Below are positions 2,048-60,658 of a stretch of 64,000 bases of DNA, in pieces. The translations under genes and the position numbers were made by a program. This stretch comes from Octopus vulgaris (taxonomy: Eukaryota): NCBI GenBank assembly GCA_951406725.2, contig OX597819.1:40300001-40364000 (forward strand). The letters run 5' to 3'. The notes beneath the pieces were generated by a model, which saw only the letters and a list, made by a program, of their open reading frames with translations, was not told the origin of the DNA and did no database searches. Position 1 is the stretch's first letter. Every line of letters begins with the position of its first letter.

Positions 2048-2912
2048 TTGGATAATCCCATAAATAATGCTTTTTTTTTTCAATTGCATGAACTAAAAGT
2101 TGGAGTGGTATTGGATAAGCTACCTGTATCAACTTGCTATAAAAGCAAGTAGTAATTTTACCTTGTCCTTATTCTTAGTGCAAGCTTTGAAGAGTGCAGT
2201 TCAATTTTAACAGTTATTTTTTCAAAGCTATAATGGAAGCGACAAAGGAGCATATTCGGCTTATTTTGCTTTATGAGTTCAACAAAGGCAACAACACAAC
2301 AGAAAGTGGGAGGAATATTAATGCAGTATATGGGAATCAGACAATAAATGTAAGCCAGTGTCAACAGTGGTTCCAGAAGTTCTGAGTCGGAAACTATAGC
2401 TTAGAAGACGAGCCTCATCCTGAAAGATCTGTAGAGCTTGACAAGGACGTCCTGCAAATCTTGGTGGAACAAAATTCCATTGTAACTATTGAGGAACTAG
2501 CAGAGAAGCTTGGATTTGGTCATTCAATCATTCATCAACCTGTGCATGCCATCGGAAAAGTCAGCAAATTGGGTCAATAGGTTCCTCAAACTTTCCAAGT
2601 CTAATCACGCACAGACAGCGAATGTGTGCTCTTCTTTGCTGTCAAATCTCATGAATGAACCTTTTTTGAACCAAATAGTAACTGGTGATGAGAAATGGGT
2701 TCTCTATAAAAATGTCAAGCACCAAAGACAGGAGAAACACTGGCACCCCAGGCAAAAGTAAGGTGTTGTTATCTGTTTGATGGGATATGAAAGGTTTAGT
2801 CCACTTTCAACTTTTAATCCCAAACTAAATGATAACAAAGGAGATCTACTGCGAGCAGCTTGAGCCGTTTAAGTTAGCGCTAAAAGAAAAACGACTATCT
2901 TTAGTTTCAAGA
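2048..2912 (+). pseudogene. mariner transposase relic with 5' end
   Basis: TA then ttggataatccc..; MEATKEHIRLILLYEF..QCQQWFQKF (HTH), FLNQIVTGDEKWVLY (first catalytic D), IYCEQL block; stops and frameshifts, 3' truncated. Confidence 0.9.
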
Positions 2913-4206
2913 TGATGGTTTTGTCCATGTCCTTCATTTTAATATTGCATCTGTTCATCTTAGAAGAACTCTTGCTGGATTCTACCATATAGAATTAAAC
3001 AGCAGTCACCCTTAGAACATGCACAATTAGTGCTAGGCAATCAATGAGTTTAATAATTTAGCTGTGAAAGGCAGTGAGCTAACAGAATCGTTACCCAACC
3101 AAACAAAATACTTAGCTGCATTTCTTCTATTGTTACATTCTGAGTTCAAATGCCACCAAGACTGGCTTTGCCTTTCGTCCCTTTGGGGTCAATAAAATAA
3201 ATGCCAGTTGATCACCAGGGTCGATGTAATTGACTTACCCCCTCCTCAAAATTGTGGGTCTTATGCCAAAATATTGTAGCCAGTAATTTTACTGCCAGAA
3301 TCTTGTGCCAAGGAGTATTTTTAATATTAGTATTAGTATTAGCCAGACTAACACACCTGGTGATTCTTTCAAAGATTTTGGGAAGAATTTCTTTTATTTT
3401 TCCTTTTTGTTTTAGTCTGGCTGTGACCATACTGGGGCACCCACCTTGAAGTATAGTCAAACAAGTCACACACTCACACTCCCTGCTCCCCAGTACTTAT
3501 CTTTTTTTAAGCGTGGTACTTATTCTATCAGGCTCATTTTGCTGAATTGCTAAGTTACAAGAACATAAACAAACCAATACCAGCTGTCAAGTAGTGGTGG
3601 AGGGAACAAATGCAGAGACACACAAGTACATATATGCACACACACACACACAACAGGTTTTCTCTGAGTTTCTGTCTACCAAATTCATTTCTCAAAGTAT
3701 TCATCAGCCTTGGGCTGTAGTAGAAGACACTTTCTAAGTTGGCTATTTCACTGTGATAAAGCAGTGTCAGCATCATCATCATCATCATTCTGTCTTCCAT
3801 GCTGGCATGGGTTGGGCAGTTCAACATGAACTGACGAATCAGTGACTTGTGCCCAGTTCCAGTGTCTATTTCAGCACGGCTTTTACAGCTAGAGGCTCTT
3901 CCTAACATCAACCACTTCACAGAGTGTACTGGATGCTTTACTCATGGCACCAGCACTGGTGAGGTCACCAAGTTCTCACAAGGCAAGATCCTTGAGTGAG
4001 ATACAGTATTGAGGGATATAAAAAGTATAATGGAAGGACAACAGTAGGTGTTCCGATGAAGAGGTGAATACGTAGTGTCCCTATTTGGAAAGAGAGAGAT
4101 GAGATCATGGTACAATGTGAATGTAAAAGAGAACAGAGGTACAGAAAAGTGTTTTTATTAAGATTAACTGATTTTGAGATATTTATTAACTGAAGATAAT
4201 TTTGTA

Positions 4207-4483
4207 ATATTCTGTTGTGTCTGAGGAGAGTCATTTTTTTGTTTTGTGCCTTATAATTTAACACACTCACTAGTAAAATTTCCACTTATTTCTTTTTTAT
4301 TTTCCTAAATTTTCATTATATCTTGCAATCTTTTCAATAGAGTCAAGACTATTGAAAAGGTTGCAAGACGCAATGAAAATTTTAGGAAAATAGAAATAAG
4401 AAGTAAGTGAAAATTATACCGGTGAGTGTGTTACATTATAAGGCACAAAAAGAAAATGACTCTCCTTAAACACAATAGAATAT
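4207..4483. repeat. Long near-perfect palindrome (about 134-bp arms, about 8-bp spacer)
   Basis: atattctgttgtg..ttttcaatag / agtcaaga / ctattgaaaa..cacaatagaatat. Confidence 0.95.
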
Positions 4484-5101
4484 GCTTCAACACACGAACC
4501 CATATAAAGAATCTTGCAAACCAAATCCAAAGACGAAATTTTGTAACAGCTTTTCCTTTTTGTTTTGTATTTTCAAACTCAAATTAATATCTGCTCATTT
4601 GTATAAGGAAAGACAGGCATGGCTGTGTAATAAGAAGCTTGATTCCCAACCACATGGTTCAGGGTTCAGTCCCACTGCATGGTACCTTGTCCAAGTGTCT
4701 TCTACTACAGCTTTGGACTGACTAAAGCCTTGTGAGTTAGATGGAAACTGTAAGAAACCCATCGTGTGTGTGTGTGTGTACATGCAATGCAAACTCTGCA
4801 CATGGATACGTTACAGAAAGCTCAACAACAAAACAAGTTTATTTACAAGATATTTGATGACTTATATGAATAAACACTCACTTTATATTGCTTTCTCAAT
4901 GTATACACATGTACAAACACACACACGCATGGCCAAGAGAAAAGCTCATTTGGATTGTATTAGGAGACATGTATTAGCTTAGGACTTTTCTTAATGTATT
5001 ATTTGTTTGATGTTTTATAAACAGTGAGCATTATTATTAAGTTCTCTCACTGCAGGTTTTTAAGTGAAGTTTGTTTATAAAATATTTGATTATTTATATA
5101 T

Positions 5102-5288
5102 CAGTGCTTCGCAACCTTTTTTAACTTGTGGTACACTTATATTCTTTTCAAAATTTGGCGGCCCACCTGAACTAAAAATATAAGTAAAAATGTAGGGGAA
5201 AAAAATTATATTTAGGTTACACTGCGGCACACCTAGTGCCATCTCATGGCACACCAGTGTGTCACAGTGTACCGGTTGTGGAGCACTA
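5102..5288. mobile_element. hAT/Charlie-like MITE
   Basis: Imperfect TIRs cagtgcttcgcaacc / ggttgtggagcacta; subterminal ggcacacc motifs; no clean 8-bp TSD. Confidence 0.6.
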
Positions 5289-5298
5289 ACTATGAATA

Positions 5299-5531
5299 AG
5301 GCGGTGAGCTGGCAGAATTGTTAGCACACCGGGTGAAATGCTTTGCGGTATTTCGTCTGCTGTTATGTTCTGAGTTCAAATTCCCCCGAGGTCGACTTTG
5401 CCTTTCATCCTTTCGGGGTCGATTAAATAAGTACCAGTTACTCACTGGTGTCAATATAATCGACTAAATCTGTTTGTCTGTCCTTGTTTGTCCCCTCTGT
5501 GTTTAGGCCCTTGTGGGTAGTAAAGAAATAA
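5299..5531 (+). mobile_element. SINE family B, full length
   Basis: aggcggtgagctggcag..gagttcaaattcc..gcctttcatcctttcggggtcga..gtaaagaaata; flanked by tatgaataag direct repeats. Confidence 0.85.
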
Positions 5532-5588
5532 CTTATATGAATAAGTACTCACTTTGTTTTGTTTTCTCAATATATACACTCACATTTA

Positions 5589-5805
5589 AGGTGGCGAGCT
5601 GGCACAAGCATTAGCACACTGGGTGAAATATTTAGCAGTATTTCATGTGTCTTTATGTACTGAGTTCAAATTCCACCGAGGTCGACTTTGCCTTTCATCC
5701 TCTCAGGGTCGATAAATTAAGTACCAGTTACATACTGGGGTTTATCTAATCAACTGACCCCGTCCCCAAAAATTTTGGGCCCTGTGCCTAGAGTAGAAAA
5801 GAATA
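5589..5805 (+). mobile_element. SINE family B, alternative tail
   Basis: Same head and core, tail gtgcctagagtagaaaagaat. Confidence 0.8.
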
Positions 5806-6990
5806 TATATACACACACACATACACATGTCATTGCTGTTGATTAACTCCAGTGACCTCCTGCATGAGCAGATATATGGCACAGAGCTGGCCCAATGCTA
5901 AAGGTTTTGGTTGGTTGGTCAGTTGGTTGATTTACATTATTGTTAAGTTGTCTCACTGCAGGTTTTAAGTGAAAAAAATCCATGTGAAATTGCATAAAAT
6001 ACCTGAGGCATAATGTGAATGTAGTTTATGAAGACGAGCTGATATTGAGCAACTTAAATGAGAAGTGTTCAGTTCAGTGTAATAATTATTGTTAGTCTAC
6101 TTGAAATAACTTGATGTAGTAGTTGTGTATGTAAGGTGCATTCTGTATCATGCGTGTTATTTAGGGACTTCATTTTTCTTTTCCATCTTGTCATTCACAT
6201 TTCCTGTTAATCTCATTTTGTTAACCAAGTTTCAAGACTCATGGTGAAGCAAAGATCTCACCACAGAAGTTAGATTATGTTCAGACTGGTAACTGGTAAT
6301 TTCATTATTTTAATTGGAACTCTAAAGATGGACTACTGGTTACTGTTACAGCTATCAGACTTTCTATGAAATTGGTAATAAACACTTTTTGTTTTGTTTT
6401 TTAACAATGACATACTTTCAGAACTGAATGATTAAAGTCTATTTCCAAAAGTTACCAGTGTAAGAATGACTAATAATGACTAATAATGACTGTCTCATTG
6501 TTGAATCTGAAATGTTGCCTAAATCTGATGAAGACATAATAAATTGGAAATGGTAACTGTTAATTCCCTTCTGTGATAGAGATACCAACTTTGTGGATAG
6601 AGACTGATAACTAACATCGTGTGTCAAAGGTTACTCAATTACCCAGAACATATTGAAAGGATGAAAGAGATGGAGAAAGAAATACAACAATATTTTTAAT
6701 AATTTTATTTTTAGTAAAACATTCTTATATCATTGTTGTTACATTGTTTTTTTTAATTTTTTAGTGTTTCTTCACTGGGTCCAAACCAATATTATCTATC
6801 AAAATTTGTATTTTAATTTTTTATTGTTTTTACTTTTTTTTTTTACTTTCAAGCAGTTGCTTTATTTTGTATTTCTACATTTCTTCTTCAACTAGTTTCA
6901 AATCCAAATCTGTTTATTTTCACTTCTTACAAAAAAAAAAAAAATGTTCACTTCATCCTATGTACAGAAAATTCTATTTAATATTCTATG

Positions 6991-7147
6991 TAACCCTTTT
7001 AATACAAACCCACCAGAGACTTCCCTTGGTTCTATTGTACAAAAATAAACAGTCACATCAATAAAACCTCAAAGCATGATTAATTAAAAATAATGGGAAT
7101 AGATAAGCATTATATTTGACAGAGTAATCTGAATGCTAAAGAGTTAA
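6991..7147. mobile_element. piggyBac-like MITE (TTAA ends), internally deleted
   Basis: taaccctttt..ctgaatgctaaagagttaa; homologous to 31566-32272, 57760-57869 and 62357-62900. Confidence 0.55.
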
Positions 7148-7261
7148 AATTATCTAAATTTATATTCCCATGAAAATTTCATGTTAAATCATGTTCCAAA
7201 CATCAGCTAAATAATGAAAAAGTTATTTTACTATATTCTTCATTATTCTCAAAATTAATTG

Positions 7262-7318
<57 letters not shown>

Positions 7319-7319
<1 letters not shown>

Positions 7320-7541
7320 GTTTTATTTATTTTGCACATTACTTAATCATCGGTATATTATTGTTATTTTATATTTCTATTATATGTAATTTTCTAGATG
7401 GTGTAATTTAATTGTTCATTTTGAATTGATAAAAGGTGGTTTTTTCTTATTTTTATATATATATTATATTTTGTGAAATTTGATTTAGTATTTCTAAATT
7501 GAATTTTTCCCTGTAAGTTAGGAATAATATTCCCTCAAATT

Positions 7542-7545
<4 letters not shown>
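7319..7545 (+). repeat. AT-rich dispersed repeat next to (TA)n; inverted copy at 41878-42045
   Basis: ttttctagatggtgtaatttaattgttcattttgaattgataaaaggtggttttt is the reverse complement of the 41.9-kb segment. Confidence 0.85.
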
Positions 7546-7571
<26 letters not shown>

Positions 7572-7572
<1 letters not shown>

Positions 7573-7972
7573 TCTTTCTTTTATTCTTTTACTTGTTTCA
7601 GTCATTTGACTGGCCATGCTGGAGCGCTGCCTTTAGTCGAGCAAATCGACCCCAGGACTTATTCTTTGTAAGCCTAGTACTTATTCTATCAGTCTCTTTT
7701 TGCCGAACTGCTATGTCACAGGGACGTAAACACACCGGCATCGTTTGTCAAGCAATGTTGGAGGGACAAGCACAGACACACAAACATATACACACACATA
7801 CATATATGTGACAGGCTTCTTTCAGTTTCCGTCTATCAAATCCACTCACAAGGCTTTGGTCGGCCCGAGGCTATAGTAGAAGACACTTGCCCAAGGTGTC
7901 ACGCAGTGGGACTGAACCCGGAACCATGTGGCTGGTAAGCAAGTTACTAACCAAACAGCCACTCCTGCGCCT
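7572..7972 (-). mobile_element. SINE family A, full length, in (TA)n
   Basis: Complete head-to-tail match to the family A consensus. Confidence 0.9.
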
Positions 7973-8879
7973 GTATATATATATAATATGCATGAAGCCT
8001 GAGCAGCCCTTCAGCTAGTCAGCTTCTGGTAAATAATCCAGCCCATGCCAGCATGGAAAACACACATTAAATGATGATAATGATGAGACAATATGCATAT
8101 ATATATATATATTCATAACAAAAGAGTCTGGATGTTTCCACACAGGAAAAAAATATAGGGAAATGTGTTGTTGAAAATGCAGCTAAATTTCAAAAACTTG
8201 TAAATGTTTAAAATACATTTATTTACAAATATATCAATGGTAAAAGTTTGAAGTTATGAATTAGAAAAACGTCTTTAAAAGTTTCAATGTTGACAAATTA
8301 ACATGTTCAAAACAGATGAATTTAGCATTATGAGTTAGGAGGACAGGTGCAAGTTTGAATGTTCATAGCAGTCAATAATATTAAAACTGTAAATCAATTT
8401 GTTTGAATGTACAAAGTTCATTAATGTTAGTCATGATCAACAAGTCTACTGAGTTAAGAGTGGGGTAAAAACAAGGGAGAAATGAAAATAGGAAAAAAGG
8501 GGAATTTGGTTTACAGTTTCTCTGATCCTTTTTCTGTAAATGCTTTCACTTGTAGTGGTATGTTTTGGGATCAGATGTATTTATAATTTTTTCCACAAGC
8601 AGATCTGATGTTTGATTCGTTAAGCTTGTTGTTCTGCTTATATATACCCTACTAGCACGGGGCTCAAGTGCCAGTAGTGCGACGCTGGTAATGATCACGC
8701 TCGAATGGTGCCTTTTAAGTGCCACTGGCACGGAAGCCGGTTAGCCACTCTGTCAATGATCACACTCGTATGGTGCTCTTTGCACCCCGCTAGCATGGAT
8801 GCCAGTCATCGAAACTCATCAGTAAATAGCTGGCTGTTAATACTAGATCTTATCCCAGTGAAGTATGTACCTTTCAACA

Positions 8880-10790
8880 TAGACTAGTGATTTGTAACAT
8901 CAGAGTAAGGGCTAAATGGACTCAAACAGCAAAACAATCCAGAAAAGGAAGGCTTGGAAAATTGAAAGATGTGACTATACAGAAAGCTATGCAATCCCAA
9001 CAGCAAAAAGGAGGAGATAAAGACTTAAGCATGAAGTTAAGTGAGAATCTCTACAAGTCAATCTGGCTGAGAGCTACAGACCAGTTCTATGGGTACAACA
9101 AGGTGGAAAGTGAAACTGGTGGGATAATACAGTAGATAGAGAATTAAAGACTCAGAGACAGGCCCAGAAAGAACAGAAGAAAGGCAGAGGACAAAGTACA
9201 CAACCAGGAAGCTAATTGAGAAGCTGAGAGTTGGTGAGATCAGAGCTATGAGGTACTTATAATTGTATTAGGCTGAATCAGAATATCATTGGTGAAAATG
9301 TGCAAGGAATGATAAGTGACACACTCAGTTTCCCTGAAGAAAGAGACATGGAAATGTTACAAGAGCTTGTAGAAGCAGGGAGAGAGAGGAACTGCTTCAA
9401 ATAGACTCATCAGAGGGACTATCTATTGACGTTAACAGCTTTATGTATGTAAGGTCCATTACAAATATGAAGGCAGAGGAAGTGGCCAGACTATCAGAGA
9501 TAATTACTAAAGTGCAGAAAATATCCTGCTATGTAGGATATGTGCTAATTACTTGCATAGTTAATTAGGTTGTTCAGGGAGTTATCATTCTCAGTACTTG
9601 GTGTAGCAGTATTATCAACAACCACTACAAAGGCAAATGAGATGCTCTAGAAAGAAGCAACTATTAAGGTATCAAAATGATGGACCAAGTTAGGAAAGAA
9701 GCAAAGGGAGGCATAGTTTAGCTGATTTGTAAGAAAATTAACTTAGATGAGAAGCAGTTCGGATTTGTGTCAGGGCAGTACACAATCAGTGCCCTCTTCT
9801 CAGGAGAAATTCTTAATCAAAAAACAAATCACTGAACCTTACATTCGCTGAGCTGAAGAAGACTTTTGACAGGGGTCCATGACCTGTAGTCTAGTGGTCA
9901 TTGAGAAGTTAGCAATGAGTTCAATAAAGAACTGAGTGTACATATAGGTTCTCAACCTGTTTCTATTCTCCAAGCCATACAGATGAGTTTAAGAATGGTG
10001 ATTCATAGGAACTTCTGCTTGTTGCTGACCAAGTTCTCATAGTTGATTCAGTCAAAGAATGGACAGAAAAGTTCTGAAGAAAGAAGCAAAATTGAAAATC
10101 AAGAAGTCTGAAAGTAAAACAAGCAAAGGCCACTGAACTTGGTTTTGGTAAGTGGCTATGACTCATACAGAAAAGATGTAGGGATGAAATGTATATTGTG
10201 TACCCAATGTACACCAAGGGTGCACAAGAGATGTAATGATATCACAGGCAGACCAACTGGAAAAGAAGGACATTATAAGAAAAAAAATGTTCAGGATTAG
10301 TTAGCAAAAAGAGCACCTTTGAAATGCTTTCCTAAATATGGACAGTTTTTGCTATGTAAGTGACCCAGTCAGCAGTGAAGACTAATGTTTTCAAAAGCAT
10401 AGTAGAGAAGTCATTATGAGATGGAAAAGTTAAAGAGTTTATTATTCCTGGTAGCAAGAAGGATTCTCTCTCCAAGTAAAGGATGGATTGAGTGATGCTT
10501 AAGAACAACTCATAGCATTGCATGTGATGACTTGAAAGAAATGAGGCTAGCAAGCTCCACTAGTGTAATGTTAGTGTGCATGAATGATGGAGCTGAGAGA
10601 AAGAGAAACCTGTAATGAGAAAGAGGGAAGACAGTGCAAATAAAGTGAGTGATGGTTGTATTGGGCATGAGAGAAACTGGTATTGTTACAGACATCTGAG
10701 GCATATGGAGAATTACAATTGGGTAAAGAAGTGCCAAGTGATCTAAGCAGAAGAGAAAGAGGTGGTGAATGCTGAAACACATGAAGGAGA
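8880..10790 (+). pseudogene. Heavily decayed RTE-clade ORF2 (reverse transcriptase)
   Basis: Remnant motifs GIKMMDQV, LDEKQFGFVSG (QFGF), FAELKKTFDR (DLEKAFD) in collinear order, many stops. Confidence 0.75.
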
Positions 10791-20029: not shown

Positions 20030-20205
20030 TAATAGTTATCGCCAAGCTAATATGGCAGTCCAGAAAAATAGGATGAATGCTGCCGTTGATTAGCTCCAAG
20101 AGGCCATCACATAGCTAGCTAGAGGCAATGGCCTCTTGGAGCTAATCAACAGCAGCATTCGTCCTATTTTTCTGGACTGCCATGTTAGCTTGGCGATAAC
20201 TATTA
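20030..20205. repeat. Palindrome, 78-bp arms, 20-bp spacer
   Basis: taatagttatcgccaagctaa..gaggccat / cacatagctagctagaggca / atggcctc..ttagcttggcgataactatta. Confidence 0.97.
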
Positions 20206-25658: not shown

Positions 25659-26890
25659 CAATCTTACTTAGAAATGGATGCATGCGTTCCGTCATATAAT
25701 AAATTAATAAATAAAACATATGCATATATACATGCATATATGGGTACGGGACACCAAAAAAACGTCAAACACAATGAGAAATGAAAACATAAACACAAAA
25801 CCAAGGAACTGGACATTTTTCTTAAACAACGAAAAAATAGAGTACAGGACATACAAAACAAGGAAAATTCCCCTTCTTCAGTCGCCATGGTTTCATCTAC
25901 TCTGTGTTTTGAAGGTGAAGGCGATACGCATCTTCGATAGAAACCTTCCTTCCCGTGAAAAGCGTCCAGGTCCTTGGTTTTGTGTTTATGTTTTCGTTTC
26001 TCATTGTGTTCGACGTTTTTTGGTGTCCTGTACCCATATATGTATGTATATATATATGTAGAGGTAGGTACGTACATATATGTATGTATACATGCATATG
26101 TTTTATTTATTAATTTATTATATGACGGAACGCACGCATCCATTTCTATGTAAGATTGTTCTTGATATTAATAATGATATTAATAATGATGCGCACTCTT
26201 GACCTTTCTGTCCCCTCCCATTCTTTCTGGTTTCCTTTTCTTCTACCTTACTGTCTCTCTCTGTCTCTCTCTCTCTCTCTCTCTCATTCTTCATTCTTTC
26301 TGGTTTCCTCACAACCATTCCCTTTTTTCTCTCCCTTCCTCCTCCCTCCTCCCGTCATTGACCTGCGACGAGAGCTCTGCTACTGTCTTTCTGACCTGGT
26401 TTCCTTGAAGTGTAGACAGCATTTTCTGTTGCTCCTTCGCCGTTCCCAAAAATAGCGTTTGTATACTTTATCTCATTCGGCTTAACAGCCCTTCTTGTCC
26501 TCTCTTTTACTGTTTATATTTTGTACTGTCATTACTGTCCTGTTTCTGTTACCATTTTTACCCCTCCGCAAAAAGATCTCAAATTTTATTTAATTTGCTT
26601 TTCGCGGGAAGGAAAGTTTCTATCGAAGATGCGTATCACCTTCACCTTCGAAACACAAAGTAGATGAAACTATGGCGACTGAAGAAGGGGAATTTTCCTT
26701 GTGTTATTTGTCCTGTACTCTATTTTTTCGTTGTTTAAGAAAAATGTCCAGTTCCTTGGTTTTGTGTTTATGTTTTCGTTTCTCATTGTGTTTGACGTTT
26801 TTTGGTGTCCTGTACCCATATATGTATGTATATATACATGTAGAGGTAGGTACGTACATATATGTATGTATATATGCATATGTTTTATTT
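25656..26890. mobile_element. Non-coding Penelope-like element: about 780-bp unit with direct terminal redundancy plus inverted 5' copy
   Basis: 25964-26110 repeats at 26746-26890; 25656-25962 is the reverse complement of 26598-26890 plus 26110-26162; flanked by (TA)n; degenerate hammerhead-like boxes ttcgaaac and ctgaagaagggg. Confidence 0.7.
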
Positions 26891-28304: not shown

Positions 28305-29220
28305 GTGGTGCTCTTATGGCCAAGTCACCACCAGTAAAATTCTAACTGGAGTCTAAAACTGACAATCATAGACCAAGCTTCATATAGATTTTTCTGGACC
28401 AGTAAATGGCGCATATTACCTGATTGTAGTAAATAGTTATACTAAGTGGCCGGAAATATGTACATCTAGGAGACCAACCTGTACCAATAGAATTTCTTCA
28501 TGAACTCTTTGCAAGATATGGTGTGTCAGACACTATAGTATCTGATAACAGTACACGGTTTACGGCATATGAGTTTAAAATTTTTTGCAAAATATACGCA
28601 GTTGAACACATCCCTACTCCACCACACCACCCAAGATCAAATGGAAAAGTGGAACAGTTTGTGGATGCATTTAAAAGAGCATTAAAGAAATCAAGAAACA
28701 AGCTAATCGATGATGCAACATTGACACAATTCTTGAGGGTTCATTGGATAACATGAAACCCAAACACTTATTCAGGCAAGTCGCCTGTGGAACTAATGTT
28801 TGCTCGAAAAATAAAGTCAATTTTTAACAAGCTGTTACCAATAAGAAAAACAAACAGGGAAAACATTAAAAATACAACAAAGTATTTTAATATTGGTGAC
28901 AAGGTGTTTTTCAAAATATATAAAAATGGAAGAGAAGGTTGGGAAGACAGAAAAGTAACAAAACAAATGGGCAAAATGACGTATATAAGAGGCAAAAAAA
29001 TAGGAACACAAAAGACATTTAAACCAGTTAAAAAATAGACATATGAAAAAAAAAGAGATACCCATGGAAGTCCTCTGTGACATCTTTGATGTTCCAACAC
29101 CACAAGTCAAAGCTGGGCATAGCAGCACAAGAAAGAGGGAACAAATGGAATGGTTGGAAATAGTGCCTAAACAGAAGAAATACTAAACTTCCCTAGGAAG
29201 TTAACTCTCAAAGGGGGAGA
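28305..29220 (+). pseudogene. Ty3/Gypsy integrase relic with polypurine tract
   Basis: LHIDFSGP, YLIVVNSYTKWPE, IVSDNSTRFTAYEF, PPHHPRSNGKVEQFV, SPVELMFARK; PPT aaagggggaga at the end; no intact LTR. Confidence 0.9.
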
Positions 29221-29235
29221 TTTTTTGGTGACAGT

Positions 29236-29500
29236 CATTCACATACCTTCGAAACGCGGAGTAGATGAAACAGAGGCGGCTGAAGAAGGGGAATTTTCCT
29301 TGTGTTGTATGTCTTGTACTCTATTTTTTTGTTGTTTAAGAAAAATGTCCATTTAGTTGGTTTTGTGTTTATGTTTTCGTTTCTCATTGTGTTCGACGTT
29401 TTTTTGGTGTCCTGTACACATATATGCATGTATATATACATATAGATGTAGGTACGTTCATATATGTATGTATATATACATATGTTTTATTTATTAATTT
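29236..29500 (+). mobile_element. Second copy of the 25656-26890 family terminus
   Basis: ccttcgaaacgcggagtagatgaaac..ctgaagaaggggaattttccttgtg.., ends in (TA)n. Confidence 0.85.
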
Positions 29501-29574: not shown

Positions 29575-30148
29575 TGTAGGAGTGGATGTGTGGTAAGTAG
29601 CTTGCTTACCAACCACATGGTTCTGGGTTCAGTCCCACTGTGCAGCACCTTGGGCAAGAGTCGTCTATTATAGCTTTGGGTCGACCAAAGACTTGTGAGT
29701 AGATTTAGTAGACAGAAACTGAAAGAAGCCTGTCATATATATATATATATATATATAACGGGAAGCTTTATGAAAATAAACAAAAGACGAAGGCAGGTGG
29801 AAAACAAACGAACAATTGTATTAGTATGGCGCTCAGGAAACATAAATAAAACAAGTCTTTAACGTTTCGAGCCTACGCTCTTCAACAGAAAGATACACAG
29901 AGAGAGAAAAACACAGAAAGAAGGAGAGAAAAAAAATGCGTGCAGTAGCTTATATATATATGTATATGTTTGTGTGTTTGTGTTTGTTCCCCCAACATTG
30001 CTTGACAACCGATGCTGGTGCGTTTTTGTCCCCATAACTTAGCGCTTTGGGAAAAGAGACCAATAGAATAAGTCCTGGGGTCAATTTGCTTGACTAAAGG
30101 TGATGCTCCAGCATGGCCACACTCAAACGACTGAAACAAATAAAAGAA
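29572..30148 (+). mobile_element. SINE family A interrupted in its internal (TA)n by a 195-bp insert (29757-29951)
   Basis: 5' and 3' SINE halves are collinear around the insert. Confidence 0.85.
29855..29896 (-). ncRNA. Minimal type I hammerhead ribozyme motif (Penelope type, variant core)
   Basis: tcttt-CTGTTGA-a-gagc(gtag)gctc-GAAA-cgtt-aaaga: stem I tcttt/aaaga, stem II gagc/gctc, palindromic AACGTT in place of stem III. Confidence 0.65.
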
Positions 30149-31066
30149 TATATATATAAGATGACAACTAAATAATCTACTCATACAACATGGCTGAGTA
30201 TTGTAATTCTCTAGCAGGATCAGTGTGACAATAGCGTGCCAAAGCTGGACATTTTGAACTACAAGTACAGATCATCCAATGGTGTTACGATTTAATATGA
30301 CCAATGAAACTCTTGAAAAATGTTGAAGGATAATCCTTGAAGAAATAGCTTATCCAAATATTATTATTTTAGGCATAAGTGTGGCTTTTGAGCAAGAAGT
30401 TTGCTTCCCAAGCACATAGTTCTGGGTTCAGTCTCACACCATGGCACTTTAAGCAAATGTCTTCAACTATAGACCTGGGCCAACCAAAGACTTGTAATTT
30501 GGTTGATAGAAACCGAAAGAAGTCTGTTGTGAATATATATGTATATATCTATGCATGTGTGTTTTTGTGTCTGTGTTTGTTCCATTCTTTGATAATGAGT
30601 GTTGGTTTGTTTATGTCGCTGTAACTTAGCAGCTTGGGAAAAAGAGATTGATAGAATAAGTATGAGACTTCTTAAAAATACCAGGAGGAACTGGAAATTT
30701 CCAGGCTTTCAGGGTATTGCAAGGGATCTGGTTGGAGGCCCAACATTCCAAGTTCTTTTATAGGGCTTAGAAAACTGAAAGACCACTGCAACAAGTGTGT
30801 GTATCTGAGAAGGGAATATGTTGAATAAAATCATAATTAACTGATCCTCCTGTATTTTCTTTTACCCAAAGCCAAGAACTTTTTAGCACTCACTTGTAAG
30901 TACTGGTGTCAATTTGTTTGACTAAGCCCTTTAAGTTGGCACCCCAGTATGGCTGCATCCCGACAGCTGAAGCAAATACAAGATTAAAGAAAAGATGGAA
31001 AGCTTATGTCTAAAATGAGTAATGTGTTCTCCTTGATAATCAATTAGCTACCATTTTGTATAAACA

Positions 31067-31313
31067 TGGAATTTACTATGTTACGCCAGACTTCACGGTC
31101 CATCATAGCATCACAGAGGTCCTGTTGCTGGATGCCTGTATCCCTGGAGATTACATGAGGGTAGGAGAGTGTGCACCCTCTTACCCTGATGTAAATTCCA
31201 GGGATACAGGCATCCAGCAACAGGACCTCCGTAATGCTATGATGGACCGTGAAGTCTGGCGTAGCATGGTAAATTCCATTGTCTCGACCACGGTCGAACA
31301 ATGATGATGATGA
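31067..31313 (+). mobile_element. RTE-type LINE 3' end with inverted self-duplication and 10-bp TSD
   Basis: About 107-bp arms centred on gtgcac; DLRNAMMDREVWRSMV motif; (ATG)n tail; TSD tgtataaaca at 31057-31066 and 31314-31323. Confidence 0.9.
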
Positions 31314-31565
31314 TGTATAAACACGCTAACAAGGAACAAGTCAATTAAATTCCAGATAAATTCAGCATAAAGCAAAGTAAAAAGAAAAAAAAAATTGATA
31401 GACAATAGATATGTAGACTGCATCATTCAGCCCAAGGTTAAAAGAGGAATTATTTTTCCTTTATCTCAAATGGAGTAACATATCTGAAATGTCAGTGTCC
31501 TCTTACTATGACATTTAAACTTATCAAACTCATGAACTTGAAAACAAAAAGTTTAGCTAATTTAA

Positions 31566-33175: not shown

Positions 33176-33504
33176 ATGCATGGGCAACTGTTGACCTAAC
33201 ACAAAAACAACCTTGCCCAGACTTGAGCTTCAGACAGGACTTTTCTAGATGCAGTCCCATGGTCAGTCATCACTGAAGGGGGTCTTTACTCATTACCATA
33301 TAAACATGCATAAAAGTAGTAAACAAGTGTCACTGTCATACAAGCAGTGTCCATCATTTCAATCATCTGTAAAAACATGTCTAGCCTTAGGGGAAATATA
33401 ATCTTACTTGGAAATAGGCAAGGGTTCACGACAGGAAGGTCGGCCAGCTGTAGAAAAATCTGCTAAAACAAATTACATTTGACCCATGCAAACATGTTAA
33501 ATTC

Positions 33505-45985: not shown

Positions 45986-46089
45986 TTTAAAAATAGGGTA
46001 AAATCTTCATAAGAATTTATCAAGTAGTTAATGTGAAAAACCTCATAAGAGAAAAAAACCATCAATTTTTTCTTTTAAATTAATTTATT

Positions 46090-46498
<409 letters not shown>

Positions 46499-46527: not shown

Positions 46528-47571
46528 TCATCATCATCATTGTTTAACGTCCGTTTTTCATGCTAGCATAGGTTGGACGGTCCAACTGGGGTCTGGGAAG
46601 CCAGGAGGCTGCACCAGGTTCCAGTCTGATCTGGCAGTGTTTCAACATCTAGGTGCCCTTCTTAACGCCAACCACTCCGTGTGAGTAGTGGGTGCTTTTT
46701 ATGTGCCAACAGCACAGGGGCCAGGGGAGGCTGGCAACGGCCATGATCGGTTGGTGCTTTTTATGTGCCACTGGCACAGAAGCCAATCAAGGTGGTGCTG
46801 GCATTGGCCACGTTTGGATGGTGCTTTTTACGTGCCACCGGCATGGGTATGACAACTACAATTTCCATTTGATTTATATTTTGATGTTGATGTACATGAC
46901 TCAATAGGTCTCAAGCACAGCAGGTCACCCTACAATCCAAGGTAAGCACAGCAAGTTGCCCTACGATCCAAGGTACTTTGAATGGGGTGGGGCTGGTTAT
47001 GTGAAACTGGTGTAGGTTACACCATGGACTCATTTTATTTGTCGGGTCTTTGCAGTCACAGCATATCTCCAGAGGTCTTGGTCTTTCGGCATTGCCTCTG
47101 TGAGGCCCAACGTTCGAAGGTCATGCTTGACCACCTCATCCCATGTCTTCCTGAGTCTACCTTTACCCTGGATTCCTTCAACTGTTTGGAAGTAGCACTT
47201 TATCACACATCTCTCCTCATCCATCCATAGTTCCATAGTACATGACCATACTAGCACAAACGTCTCTTTGGCACGCCACATCCGATGCTTCTTATGTCCA
47301 GCATTTCTCTCAGGGCGCTTACACTCTGTCATGTATGTACACTGACATTACACATCCAGCAGATCTTGCTAGCTTCATTTCTGTTGAGCCTACACATGTC
47401 CTCTGCAGTTACGACCCATGTTTCACTGCTGTGTAGCATGGCAGTTTGTACACATGCATCGTACAATCTACCTTTCACTTTGAGCAAGAGAGCCTTTGTC
47501 ACCAGTAGGTTTAGAAGCTTTCTAAACTTTGCCCAGGCTATTCTTATTCTAGTGGTAACACTCTGAGCATC
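46528..47571 (-). mobile_element. 5'-truncated RTE LINE
   Basis: RIRIAWAKFR..VKGRLYDACV..SETW..GRLRKTWDEVVKHDL, 3' UTR with about 3 units, (ATG)n tail. Confidence 0.92.
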
Positions 47572-47575
47572 CACA

Positions 47576-47656
<81 letters not shown>

Positions 47657-47686
47657 AATATATTAACATGGGGGATGCCAGTTTAA

Positions 47687-47746
47687 GGGATACTCTGGGT
47701 TTCTCAACCATAAGGGGTTTGGCTTTACAGTGCATCATCAGACCCC
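47687..47746 (-). ncRNA. Type I hammerhead ribozyme motif, antisense copy
   Basis: ggggt-CTGATGA-..-GAAA-cccaga-GTA-tccc on the minus strand; stem II decayed. Confidence 0.55.
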
Positions 47747-47762
47747 AAAGGCCAACAGGTTT

Positions 47763-47823
47763 GGGGTCTGATGATCTGCCATAAGTCCAAACCCTTTATG
47801 GACAAGAAACCCAGGTTAATCCC
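47763..47823 (+). ncRNA. Type I hammerhead ribozyme motif (Penelope type)
   Basis: ggggt-CTGATGA-(ccataa..ttatgg stem II)-GAAA-cccagg-TT-aatccc; quasi-palindromic AACCCAGGTT at stem III. Confidence 0.7.
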
Positions 47824-51675: not shown

Positions 51676-53286
51676 TCATCATCATCATCATCATCATCAT
51701 TTAGCGTCCGTTCTCCATGCTAGCATGGGTTGGACGGTTCAACTGGGGTCTGTGAAGCTGGAAGGCTTCATCAGGCCCAGTCAGATCTGGCAGTCTTTCT
51801 ACGGCTGGATGCCCTTCCTAACGCCAACCACTCCGTGAGTGTAGTGGGTGCTTTTTACGTGCCACCTGCACAGGTGCCAGACAGAGCTGGCAAACGGCCA
51901 CGAATGGATGGTGCTTTTACGTGTCACCGGCACGGGGCCAGGCGAGGCTGGCAACGGACACGAACGGATGGTGCTTTTACGTGCCACCAACACGGGGGCC
52001 ACACAGAGCTGGCAAACGGCCACGAAACGGATGGTGCTTTTACGTGTCACCGGCACGGGGGCCAGGTGAGGCTGGCAACGGGCACGAACGGATGGTGCTT
52101 TTACATGCCACCGACACGGGGGCCAGACAGGGCTGGCAAACGGCCACGAAAGGATGGTGCTTTTACGTGTCACCGGCACGGGGGCCAGGCGAGGCTGGCA
52201 ACGGACACGAACGGATGGTGCTTTTACATGTCACCGACATGGGGGCCAGACAGGGCTGGCAAACGGCCACGAACAGATGGTGCTTTTACGTGTCACCGGC
52301 ACGGGGGCCAGACAGAGCTGGCAAACGGCCACGAACGGATGATGCTTTTACGTGTCACCGGCACGGGGGCCAGACAGAGCTGACAAACGGCCACGAACGG
52401 ATGGTGCTTTTACGTGTCACCGGCACGGGGGCCAGACAGAGCTGGCAAACGGCCACAAACAGATGGTACTTTTACGTGTCACCGGCACGGGGGCCAGGCC
52501 AGGCTGGCAACGAACACGAACGGATGGTGCTTTACGTGCCACCTACACGGGGGCCAGACAGGGCTGGCGAACGGCTACGAACGGATGGTACTTTTACGTG
52601 TCACCTGCACGGGGGCCCTGATGTTGATCGACCTCAATTTGGTTTGATCTTGATTTTGACTGTTCTCACTGGTCTTGCCGGGTTTTCTCACGCACAGCAT
52701 ACCTCCAAAGGTCTCGGTCACTGGTCATTTCCTTGGTGAGACCTAAAGTTCGAAGGTCGTGCTTCACCGCCTCGACCCAGGTTTTCCTGGGTCTACCTCT
52801 TCCACAGGTCCCCTCAACTGCCAGGGTGTGGCACTTTCACACACAACTATCTTCAGCCATTCTCATCACATGACCATACCAGCGCATACGTCTCTCTTGC
52901 ACACAACAACTGATACTTCTTAGGTTCAACTTTTCTCTCAAGGTACTTACACTCTGTCGATTATGAACACTGACGTTACACATCCATCGGAGCATACTAG
53001 CTTCATTTCTTGCGAGCTTACGCAAATCCTCAGCAGTCACAGCCCAAGTTTCACTACCATGTAGCATGGCTGTACGTACACATGCATCATACAGTCTGCC
53101 TTTTACTTTGAGCGAGAGGCCTTTTGTCACCAGCAGAGGTAAGAGCTCTCTAAACTTTGCCCAGGCTATTCTTACTCTAGCAGTTATACTCTCAGCGCAC
53201 CTGCCCCCGCTACTGACTTGGTCACCTAGGTAACGGAAACTATCAACTACTTCTAGCTTTTCTCCCTGGAAAGTGACGGAAGTTGG
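51676..53286 (-). mobile_element. 5'-truncated RTE LINE with expanded 3' UTR minisatellite
   Basis: FQGEKLEVVDSFRYLG..HGSETW..RWYGHVMRM; (ATG)n tail. Confidence 0.93.
51847..52618. repeat. Minisatellite: 12 full units of 60-63 bp plus a partial unit
   Basis: Anchor ggtgcttttacgtg recurs near 51847, 51910, 51970, 52033, 52094, 52156, 52217, 52279, 52341, 52403, 52465, 52526, 52587. Confidence 0.97.
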
Positions 53287-53333
53287 TATAATGTTTTTTA
53301 TAAAATTATTTTAGCATTTTCTATCTTGACTTT

Positions 53334-53374
<41 letters not shown>

Positions 53375-53556
53375 ATTTTCAAATTTGCCTGCACACCACC
53401 AATGTTACGACAGTTGATGTATCAATTTTCAGTTTTATCCACAGATGATATTAACAGTAGTGGTATCTTATTTCAAATCTTTGTGTTTGAATGCTTTGTT
53501 TATATATATATGTATGAATGTATGTATATGTGTGTGTGTGTATATATATATATGTA

Positions 53557-53606
<50 letters not shown>

Positions 53607-53676
53607 TACATATATATATATATACATACACACACACATATACATACATACATACATACATACATACATACATACA

Positions 53677-53725
<49 letters not shown>

Positions 53726-53727
<2 letters not shown>

Positions 53728-54956
53728 CATCATCATCATCATCATCGTCGTTTAACGTCCGCTTTCCATGCTAGCATGGGTTGGACGGTTCAACTGGGGT
53801 CTGGGGAGCCCGAAGGCTGCACCAGGCCAGTCAGATCTGGCAGTGTTTCTACAGCTGGATGCCCTTCCTAACGCCAACCACTCCGAGAGTGTAGTGGGTG
53901 ATTTTATGTGCCACCGACACAGGTGCCAGACGAGGCTGGCGAACGGCCATGCTCGGATGGTGTTTTTATGTGCCACCGACACAGGTGCCAGACGAGGCTG
54001 GCAGACGGCCACGCTCGGATGGTGTTTTTATGTGCCACCGACACAGGTGCCAGACGAGGCTGGCAGACGGCCACGCTCGGACGGTGTTTGCGGGTGCCAG
54101 ACTGGCTACGGTCCCGTCCCGTCAGATGGTTTTCTTATGTGCCACCGGCACTGGTACCACAAGGATACAAATTCCATTGATGTTCATCTATTTTGATTTG
54201 GTTTGACTTGATTCGATTTGACTTTGATTTGATTTGCCTCAACAGGTCTTCACAAGTGTCACAAGCAGGAAGGTATGCACAGGCGGACTGACTACGTCCC
54301 AGGTAGGGGCCACGGGTTATGGCTTCACTAGTCTTGCCGGGTCTTCTCACGCACAGCATACTTCCATAGGTCTCGGTCTCTGGTCATTTCCATAGTGAGA
54401 CCTAACGTTCGAAAGTCGTGCTTCACCACCTCGTCCCAGGTTTTCCTGGGTCTACCTCTTGCACGGGTTCCCTCAACTGCTAGGGATTGGCACTTTCTCA
54501 CACACCTATCTTCATCCATTCTCGCCACATGACCATACCATCGCAATCATCTCTCTTGCACGCAACAACTGATGCTTCTTAGGTACAACATTTCTCTTAG
54601 GGAACTAACACCCTGTCGAGTAAGTACACTGACATTATACATCCATCGGAGCATACTGGCTTCATTCCTCATGAGCTTACGCATGTCCTCAGCAGTCACG
54701 GCCCATGTTTCACTGCCATGTAAGCATGGCAGTTCGAATACATTCATCATACAGTCTGCCCTTTACTCTGAGCGAGAGGCCTTTAGTCACCAGCAGAGGT
54801 AAGAGCTCCCTAAACTTTGCCCAGGCTATTCTTATTCTAGCAGTTACACTCTCAGCGCACCCACCCCCACTACTGACTTGGTCACCTAGATAACGGAAGC
54901 TATCAACTACTTCTAATTTTTCCCCCTGGAAAGTGACGGAAGTTGTTTTCTGCAGA
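53726..54956 (-). mobile_element. 5'-truncated RTE LINE
   Basis: KTTSVTFQGEKLEVVDSFRYLGDQVSSGGGC..RGRPRKTWDEVVKHD; about 4 UTR units. Confidence 0.93.
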
Positions 54957-54971
54957 TATATATATATACAT

Positions 54972-56208
54972 ATGTGGCAGATGCTCAGGAGCAATAAGCA
55001 CTGAAATTGCGCAGAGAGCAACTTCTGCCACATTCCAGGGAGAAAAACTAGAAATAGTTGATAGCTTCCATTACCTAGGTGACCAAGTCAGTAGCGGGGG
55101 CGGGTGTGTTGAAAGTGTAACTGCTAGAGTAAGAATAGCTTGGGCAAAGTTCAGAGAGCTCTTACCTCTGCTAGGGACAAAAGGCCTCTCGCTCAGAGTA
55201 AAAGGCAGACTGTATGATGCATGTGTATGAACAGCCATGCTACATGGCAGTGAAACATGGGCCGTGACTGCTGAGGATATGCGTAAGCTCGCAAGAAATG
55301 AAGCCAGTATGCTCCGATGGATGTGTAATGTCAGTGTTCATACTCGACAAAGTGTAAGTACCTTGAGAGAGAAGTTGGACCTAAGAAGCATCAGTTGCGG
55401 TGTGCAAGAGAGATGTTTGCGCTGGTATGGCCATATGGCGAGAATGGATGAAGATAGTTGTGTGAAAAAGTGCCACATCCTAGCTGTTGAGGGAACCTGT
55501 GGAAGAGGCAGACCCAGGAAAACCTGGGATGAGGTGGTGAAGCACGACCTTTGAACTTTAGGTCTCACTAGAGACCAAGACCTTTGAAAGTATGCTGTGT
55601 GTGAGAAGACCCGGCAGGACAAGTGAGACCATAACCCATGGCCTCAGTCCACTTATGCATACCTTTCCTTCTTGGGACACAAAACTCTACTTGTGAAGAA
55701 CTGTTGAAGCAAGTGAAAATCAAAATCAAAATCAAAAATCAAAATCGATCAACATGATTGGAAATTGTAGCTGTGATACCAGTGCCGGTGGAACATAAGA
55801 GAACCATCCGAATGTGGCCATTGCCAGCGCTGCCCTGACTGGCTTCCGTGCCGGTGGCACGTAAAAAGCACCATCCAATCGTGGCCGTTGCCAGCCTCGC
55901 CTGACCCCCGTGCCAGTGACACGTAAAAAGCACCATCCGATCGTGGCCGTTTGCCAGCCTTGCCTGGCCTCCGTGCCGGTGGCATGTAAAAAGCACCATC
56001 CAATTGTGGCCGTTTGCCAGCCTCGTCTGGCACCTGTGCCGGTGGCACGTAAAAAGCACCCACTACACTCATGGAGTGGTTGGCGGTAGGAAACATTGCC
56101 AGATCAGACTGGGCCTGGTGCAGCCTTCTGGCTTCCCAGACCCCAGTTGCACCGTCCAACCCATGCCAGCATGGAAAACGAATGCCAAACGATGATGATG
56201 ATGATGAT
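54972..56208 (+). mobile_element. 5'-truncated RTE LINE, head-to-head with the previous copy
   Basis: CGRCSGAI..FQGEKLEIVDSFHYLG..GRGRPRKTW; about 5 UTR units; (GAT)n tail. Confidence 0.93.
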
Positions 56209-56534: not shown

Positions 56535-57376
56535 TATATAGCAATAAGAAAATGGAGGGGATCAAGGAGTTGGTATTCATCAACTTATAGACATTATATT
56601 AAGTCTATTTTTTTTAAAAAAGACAATTATAGCAATATACATACATACTCTTTACTCTCTTTTACTCTTTTACATGTTTCAGTCATTTGACTGTGGCCAT
56701 GCTGGAGCACCGCCTTTAGTCGTGCAAATCGACCCCGGGACTTATTCTTTGTAAGCCCAGTGCTTATTCTATCGGTCTCTTTTGCCGAACCGCTAAGTGA
56801 CGGGGACGTAAACACACAAACATCGGTTGTCAAGCAATGCTAGGGGGACAAACACAGACACACAACACATACACACACATACATATATATATATACATAT
56901 ATATGACAGGCATCTTTCAGTTTCCGTCTACCAAATCCACTCACAAGGCATTGGTCGGCCCGGGGCTATAGTAGAAGACACTTGCCCAAGATGCCACGCA
57001 GTGGGACTGAACCCGGAACCATGTGGTTGGTTAGCAAGCTACTTACCACACAGCCACTCCTGCACCTATGTATAACATATTAATGCTTTACATATGTAAT
57101 ATATATTGTATAATATATAAAATATAAAATATAAAAATACCAGTAATTATTAAAATATATAACGTAGAACAGAAAATTTTAATAATTACTGGCATTTTAT
57201 ATTTTATATTTTATATATTATATAATATATATTATATATGTAAAGCATAATATGTTATACATGTATGTATATGTATATTGCTATAATTGTCTTTTTTTAA
57301 AATATATAAATAGACATAGTATAATGTCTATAAGTTGATGAATACCAACTCTTGAACCCCTCCATTTTCTTATTGC

Positions 57377-60213: not shown

Positions 60214-60297
60214 TAAATATATGTGTATGTACAACCCGTGCTAGCGCGGAAAACAGACGTTAAACGATGATGATGATGATGATGATATATATATATA

Positions 60298-60658
60298 TCA
60301 TCATCATCATCATCATCATCGTTTAACGTCTGTCCTCCATGTTAGCATGGTTTGGATGGTTCGACCGGGATCTGGGAAGGCAGAAGGCTGCACCAGGTTC
60401 CAGCCTGATCTGGCAGTGTTTCTACAGCTGGATGCCCTTCCTAACGCCAACCACTTTGTGAGTGTAGTGGGTGCTTTTTACATGCCACCGGCCCTGGTGC
60501 CAGACGAGGCTGGCAAATGGCCATGATCAGATTGGTGCTTTTTACGTGCCACCGGCCACAGAAGCCAGTCGAGGCGGCGCTGGCATAGGCCATGTTCGGA
60601 TGGTGCTTTTTACATGCCACCGGCACAGGGGTCACAACTACAGTTTCCATAATCAAAT
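60298..60658 (-). mobile_element. RTE 3' UTR/tail, tail-to-tail with a short plus-strand tail at 60233-60286
   Basis: gacgttaaac(gat)n (AT)n (atc)n gtttaacgtc. Confidence 0.88.

Follow-up and report, generated by a model that had tools for sequence, protein, structure and literature searches.

A near-perfect hairpin at an RTE-type LINE insertion in Octopus vulgaris and its probable origin by twin priming

Analysis of a 64,000-nucleotide stretch of Octopus vulgaris DNA (the window) identified, at 31057-31323, a near-perfect hairpin composed of opposed copies of one LINE 3′ end. It was probably produced by a single RTE-type LINE insertion through twin priming, in which two copies of the ORF end, one antisense and one sense, were joined at a repeat belonging to the family. 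The insertion seems to be a rare event of an already familiar kind, and not a member of a hairpin element family. It would represent twin priming with an extreme duplication outside the L1 clade, perhaps with two RNAs as templates, documented as a one-locus case.

Structure and identity of the insertion

The insertion is flanked by an exact 10-bp direct repeat, TGTATAAACA (Table 1). These are its only two copies in the window, both strands having been scanned, and with positional slack allowed a flanking match of this kind has a chance probability of ~1.5 × 10−4. Target-site duplications (TSDs) of the RTE clade are described as beginning with T some 10 nt below a T stretch; the repeat begins with T, and a T run is adjacent at 31054-56, with no clear one at -10. 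The repeat is read as the TSD of the insertion; no joint in the contigs of the four sequencing runs analysed (4/4) skips the element, and so no orthologous empty site was seen in them. All 247 nt between the TSDs were accounted for as RTE sequence. Folding of the hairpin RNA gave an MFE of -196.4 kcal/mol (z -25.6), and 0 of 200 shuffles were equally stable. The original prediction had described a near-perfect hairpin, delivered by one insertion event with both arms under a single 10-bp TSD, and in these respects it was borne out.

Table 1. Features of the insertion, in window coordinates
Feature	Position	Strand	Basis or remark
Left TSD	31057..31066	+	Exact repeat; junction in run X1, record 1, 31001-31094
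Inverted arm, RTE ORF end in antisense	31066..31163	-	Lacks the tail and the final ~21 coding nt
18-nt centre, continuing the inverted arm (family sequence)	31164..31181	-	Contigs ending behind 31181; in X9, a loose end before 31174; tblastn; register comparison
Sense arm, duplicated ORF C-terminus	31182..31279	+	Translation, arm alignment, family contigs
Last ORF codons and stop, unduplicated	31280..31303 (stop 31302-31304)	+	Translation
(ATG)5 microsatellite tail	31301..31315	+	Sequence; family contigs leave at 31311-31315
Right TSD	31314..31323	+	Exact repeat; junction in 4/4 runs, records 8, 16, 24, 32

Translation of the sense part gives a LINE ORF C-terminus, after which come a stop codon and (ATG)5. 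A 40-residue query from this part matched 3 proteins among 3 candidates, with 80–90% identity along the whole query. With the relative P0002 as query, 190 matches were obtained among 397 candidates, many of them 1020-1060 aa long and carrying APE and RT domains; the P0002 cluster includes a protein of Octopus sinensis. A further relative, P0005, was 83% identical to the sense arm over 41 aa. Pfam analysis of four relatives found RVT_1 in 4/4, an endonuclease in three and RNase H in 0/4. Exo_endo_phos and RVT_1 were present together in P0005, P0022 and P0038, that is, in relatives and not in the fragment itself, for whose 40 aa Pfam returned no domain. No C-terminal zinc finger was matched by Pfam in the four relatives, and no CCHC was seen in the last 52 residues of the proteins compared (60 of 139). 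Elements of the RTE clade have neither RNase H nor a C-terminal zinc finger, and the single ORF of about 1000-1100 aa with APE and RT found in the relatives is the architecture of that clade.

The (ATG)5 begins at the stop codon, leaving a very short 3′ UTR, as in the RTE clade. A microsatellite 3′ tail of this type is described in the accessible text of PMC6007223, where RTE-clade TSDs are cited as 7-15 bp, mostly 10-12; the 10 bp found here fall within that range. Judged from architecture, tail, TSD and general features of the clade, the element fits the 3′ extremity of an RTE-type LINE ORF. The ORF C-terminus, the APE and RT domains of the relatives, the tail and the TSD likewise back the RTE label that the element had been given at the outset. 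RTE families of Octopus are also covered in PMC13282606. RTE-2_OV of Octopus shares the RTE-type architecture of the relatives, but is set apart by its description in the available part of PMC9115989, with a ~600-nt 3′ UTR where the window family has none, and is therefore probably another family.

Within the window, no second copy of the RTE segment was found, only matches to the tail repeat, and tblastn gave only weak matches (24–27% identity) to another LINE, at 52690-53274 and 55030-55590. Pieces of another LINE ORF, with the motif LHGSETW, lie at 52690-53310, 54710-55590 and 47030-47682; two such pieces are inverted relative to each other (52736-55568, 91% identity).

The boundaries of the arms differ from those first drawn. 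The same ~107 bp had been described as inverted without a spacer about the centre gtgcac, and a first alignment, made before the boundaries were re-drawn, gave 92% complementarity between 31066-31171 and 31174-31279. However, family contigs lying on the left arm (31, 37, 17 and 12 in the four runs) cross gtgcac, continue to 31181 and pass on into element sequence further upstream, while in tblastn with P0022 the frame of the left arm is kept from 31181. Hence the duplicated arms are those of Table 1 (98 bp, 7 mismatches, no indel), and the 18-nt centre is part of the inverted arm. A zero-spacer centre, GTG/CAC, was rejected; it would need 8 substitutions and a 2-nt indel, and the contigs and tblastn run past it. 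Read as antisense, the centre has 1 mismatch to the family, against 7 when read as sense, and its sole departure from the family letters is a CpG-type change at 31175.

The centre itself forms an inverted repeat, though an imperfect one, that was in the family beforehand. Positions 31164-71 oppose 31174-81 with 6 Watson-Crick pairs, 1 G-T pair and 1 mismatch, or with 5 Watson-Crick pairs of 8 if the family letter stands at 31175. The chance of 5 or 6 such pairs in 8 is 0.027 or 0.004, respectively, calculated post hoc. At the join the terminal pair is a G-T, and by themselves the 18 nt fold only weakly (-0.9 kcal/mol). We infer that this centre was the site at which the two products were joined. 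Separately, a private 2-nt change at 31195-96 renders 31191-31200 identical to the outer arm end, 31269-31278, and may be a templated (quasi-palindrome) mutation.

Family contigs and differences between the arms

Contigs of 4 out of 24 runs, carrying four organism labels, were aligned to 30930-31560 at 80% likeness. RNA-labelled runs (shares 0.06-0.17) were left out and were not counted as expression evidence. Matching contigs numbered 6,295, 10,005, 3,547 and 2,746 per run (22,593 in total), and the RTE family is very abundant in the four runs. Contig depth climbs toward the tail, as in 5′-truncated LINEs. A metagenome scan with a 19-nt motif returned 3 loci matching 20 nt only, which were treated as chance.

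The right junction was found in 4/4 runs, differing by 0-1 letters across 256-275 nt, and the left junction in 1/4 (X1). Runs X2, X4 and X9 have holes at 30996-31039, and these were not counted as absence of the left junction. The depth of the X1 left-junction contig, 191.8, was dropped as a sign of multiple copies because contig means can include family words. The central junction occurs in 0 of the 32 contig pieces listed from the four runs and is seen in the window only, which would be in keeping with an assembly or library artefact such as a fold-back chimera. Against this stand the 7 differences between the arms in 98 sites, the exact TSD and the recovery of both outer junctions from the runs, and an artefact is scarcely credible.

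The contigs bear equally on an earlier suggestion that a hairpin master RNA, a palindromic SINE-like element, was mobilised by RTE and gave rise to this copy among many. Such an RNA would fold strongly, and the RTE 3′ end and tail are intact, so it would be mobilisable. At the tail, 23-51 contigs per place leave into unlike flanks; before 31066, by contrast, the ends listed include one loose end, a single contig continuing family sequence, and contigs starting at 31066-67 do not pile up among those ends. For the 22,593 records, 9 joints are listed; all are skips inside 31229-31379, and none of them, in any of the four runs, is a strand-change or left-to-right-arm joint. The window offers no second copy either, nor a non-LINE, promoter-bearing head, all 247 nt being RTE. 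A multi-copy hairpin element, or frequent fold-backs in the RTE segment, is not supported by the contigs of the four runs, and we regard a hairpin master RNA as highly improbable.

Some variation within the family was also recorded. Loose ends before 31269 were seen in 7 contigs of X2 and 3 of X9; that of X2 resembles an RTE 3′ end with an internal deletion, and may mark a non-autonomous subfamily. The main subfamily marker is at 31238, where T>C occurs in 40-49% of summed depth in the four runs and both arms have T.

One of the 7 arm differences (31230) is at a CpG, and those at 31188, 31195-96 and 31233 look private. The differences at 31264 and 31268 are non-CpG and fall where the family itself varies. 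The sense arm has G,G at these positions, and the inverted arm, in sense letters, has A,A at the sites matching 31268 and 31264, reading ...WRNIVNS. On the right arm, G>A accounts for 6-16% of summed contig depth at 31264 and 8-33% at 31268; these shares are not copy numbers, and variant detection was poor over 31182-31215. Contigs on the outer end of the left arm make up, roughly, 8-18% of the depth there, and no other letter is listed at 31077 or 31081, so that the A,A pair is a common haplotype. N-I residues also occur in P0002, P0005 and P0020 (3 of 60 C-termini compared, of 139 proteins).

The chance that at least 2 non-CpG arm differences hit family-variant sites was 0.0007-0.04 over 18 assumption sets (post hoc). 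Weighing against two templates, each of the two changes is a C>T when the top strand is read. Since they correspond to common family variants, the differences at 31264 and 31268 argue against simple self-copying. They point to two templates or to later conversion, and gene conversion would give the same pattern.

Twin priming and competing explanations

Twin priming had been set aside in the original prediction on the ground that it inverts sequence without duplicating the same segment. However, 283 of 1,703 twin-priming (5′-inverted) L1 insertions (17%) carry an internal duplication, with a median of 22 bp, according to the accessible part of 10.1101/2024.08.27.596794, and PMC12350158 describes a DUP conformation of such insertions. 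With internal duplication documented in L1, twin priming (standard model, PMC2912911) is admissible for the RTE hairpin, and it fits best. The L1 class with 5′ deletion, 5′ inversion and a segment duplicated internally (5′-del + 5′-inv + i-dup) resembles the RTE insertion in having one TSD and a tail on the sense part. As in the RTE case, the inverted part of L1 5′ inversions with duplication lies on the 5′ TSD and reaches further 5′, the parts overlap, and microcomplementarity is present at the inversion junction. The window insertion differs in being RTE-type and in the length of the duplication, 98 bp against the L1 median. Unlike in the L1 class, the duplication covers 98 of the 116 nt of the inverted part, yielding a near-perfect hairpin, and the arms may stem from two RNAs.

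Several observations favour twin priming. One TSD surrounds both arms, the tail is on the sense arm only, and the inverted arm abuts the TSD directly. Toward the 5′ side of the element, the inverted arm outreaches the sense arm by 18 nt, which the model predicts. The junction lies on the family repeat with its 5-6 of 8 Watson-Crick pairs, a post hoc observation. The centre belongs to the antisense arm, which itself joins the left TSD, and a cDNA with its primer at the top-strand end would be arranged in this way. Against the model, a 98-bp duplication with an 18-nt unique part is far beyond the L1 median. The G-T pair at the join, the weak folding of the centre, the near-restriction of 5′ inversions to L1 in PMC4245944 and the origin of RTE chimeras by template switching only in PMC4476161 also speak against it.

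Under twin priming, the bottom-strand end would prime on the (UGA)n tail via a 2-nt TG microhomology; the final TG of the (ATG)5 tail overlaps the right TSD, and this overlap is the presumed first primer site. The 3′ end of the left TSD would be the second, top-strand primer, which would prime internally ~21 nt above the tail and copy 116 nt (31066-31181). Microhomology at this second primer is weak, with either 1 nt in register (the last A of the left TSD, common to the inverted arm) or 4/5 with a 1-nt slip. The 3′ end of the second cDNA would then pair by the family repeat, 31174-81 with 31164-71 or with the equivalent in the first cDNA, and would prime a sense strand finished on the first cDNA.

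Within the twin-priming model, we give two RNAs of different subfamilies slightly better than an even chance, and one RNA slightly less than an even chance. With one RNA, the first polymerase would displace the second cDNA almost to its end, so that both ends would stop within 18 nt of each other; the two diagnostic differences would then arise later, by mutation or gene conversion. Two RNAs alone would leave this coincidence of ends unexplained. In that case the second cDNA would most simply snap back on itself, and the new sense strand would anneal to the first cDNA, which would account for ends within 18 nt and provide long homology for joining. A snap-back of the second, top-strand cDNA is thus possible inside the twin-priming model, and foldback of the reciprocal end at L1 sites (PMC10191854, 10.1101/2024.12.14.628481) is a precedent. 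The complete course, with templates of different subfamilies and a second cDNA that snapped back at the family repeat and was self-copied, is offered tentatively and is, as a whole, rather unlikely.

There are precedents for two templates at L1 sites. Two templates at one site with a TSD are reported in the accessible text of 10.1101/2025.09.17.676864 (n=2), and antisense chimeras are ascribed to twin priming in PMC4476161 and PMC13174262. In these cases (U5/5S/tRNA-L1 chimeras; two L1 cDNAs) the second end is primed on another RNA and is antisense within a single TSD. In the RTE case, by comparison, both templates would be of the same family and segment, told apart by two diagnostic letters only.

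Snap-back of the cDNA with self-copying was the mechanism originally proposed. Only the tail-primed cDNA would have been made; its 3′ end would have snapped back and been copied on itself, and the copy joined to the top-strand end. This would account for both arms ending at nearly one element position, with the family repeat supplying the fold site. Foldback synthesis is, moreover, known at L1 sites, where it concerns the reciprocal end (PMC10191854, process C; 10.1101/2024.12.14.628481, Fig. 4D/E): in the accessible descriptions, short microhomology lets the top-strand 3′ end anneal to itself and prime synthesis, the TSD is kept, and sizes are 52-220 bp. That process duplicates flanking genomic DNA, however, whereas the RTE hairpin duplicates element cDNA. 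Primary snap-back also predicts an unduplicated loop on the sense arm, but the loop at 31164-81 belongs to the antisense arm by its 1 versus 7 mismatches. It further predicts arms identical at birth, but 2 of the 7 differences (31264 and 31268) are common non-CpG family alleles. A later loop flip together with recurrent mutation or conversion would be needed, and primary snap-back is improbable.

Different subfamily alleles could also have been obtained from one primer, if the reverse transcriptase left the tail cDNA for another RTE copy, using its antisense transcript or its DNA as template, and copied 116 nt before joining the target site. Antisense templates are plausible in so abundant a family (2,746-10,005 contigs per run), and RTE template switching is reported in PMC4476161, the available text of which attributes RTE chimeras to template switching only. 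Yet the 8-nt overlap zone has the letters of the inverted arm and not those of the first cDNA, and arrival at the same 18-nt spot in a ~3.4-kb element would need repeat-guided pairing. The antisense transcript is hypothetical, and we consider such a jump unlikely.

Two independent insertions into the site, or an ordinary sense copy that acquired its inverted arm afterwards through rearrangement or gene conversion, would likewise bring together arms with different family alleles. Recovery of the right junction from 4/4 runs and the left from 1/4 would also suit such a history, although the holes prove nothing. The inverted arm, however, has no tail or TSD of its own and lies exactly against the shared TSD, and the join is in register on the family repeat, making such a history very unlikely.

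No case of RTE twin priming or of a LINE-derived snap-back hairpin was found in the literature searched, a body of texts that mostly excludes subscription papers and bioRxiv supplements (e.g. the duplication-size tails of 10.1101/2024.08.27.596794).

Other palindromes of the window and implications

The hairpin had been regarded as the clearest clue to an excess of palindromes. This was not upheld: besides the lack of another copy of the RTE segment, the palindromes at 4207-4483, 20030-20205, 46086-46368, 57134-57198, 47734-47775, 25742-26035 and 60253-60333 are unrelated to RTE. Since they do not derive from it, the hairpin insertion leaves the palindrome excess unexplained. The first five of these are long, with short spacers, and several have TA-rich ends. 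The element at 25742-26035, 26597-26817 and 29245-29417 is multi-copy, with 80-bp terminal inverted repeats and TA flanks, and is MITE-like. Several palindromes of the window are candidate MITEs. MITE and TIR families of O. vulgaris are treated in PMC13282606, the accessible text of which does not mention 'palindrom' or 'hairpin'. The palindrome at 60253-60333 has perfect 34-bp arms, formed where an (ATG)n-tailed element other than this RTE has two of its 3′ ends lying tail to tail across a TA run, and is a different palindrome route from that of the RTE hairpin; related ends lie at 33503, 39690, 46511 and 53714.

Other repeats were noted in passing. Broken ORFs at 28433-29038 read like what we take to be the integrase core of an LTR retrotransposon. 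A tandem array at 51724-52739 has a G+C-richer unit of ~70 nt and long open frames. A block at 30685-30896, which resembles a Tc1/mariner end, appears to split a SINE-like repeat, whose halves (30589-30684 and 30897-30925) match 30002-30097.

The RTE hairpin is one old insertion, a single-locus anecdote, and the hairpin is a by-product of integration without implied function. Twin priming with internal duplication is known in L1; what would be new is the extreme overlap, and its occurrence outside L1. To date, 5′ inversion by twin priming has been documented mainly for mammalian L1 (PMC4245944, PMC4476161), and the accessible text of PMC4245944 describes 5′ inversions as nearly confined to L1 in human cells. 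A mollusc RTE-type case suggests that priming from the second end may be a wider property of LINEs. The near-total duplication, together with the subfamily letters, makes the order of integration steps readable at one locus.

Cephalopods show heavy A-to-I editing of RNA, and the 98-bp stem, were it transcribed, would offer a substrate of dsRNA in such animals. Were the two-RNA reading true, twin priming in trans would extend beyond L1, and the family repeat would be a recurrent fold point, able to give rise to long dsRNA-capable hairpins in a cephalopod genome.
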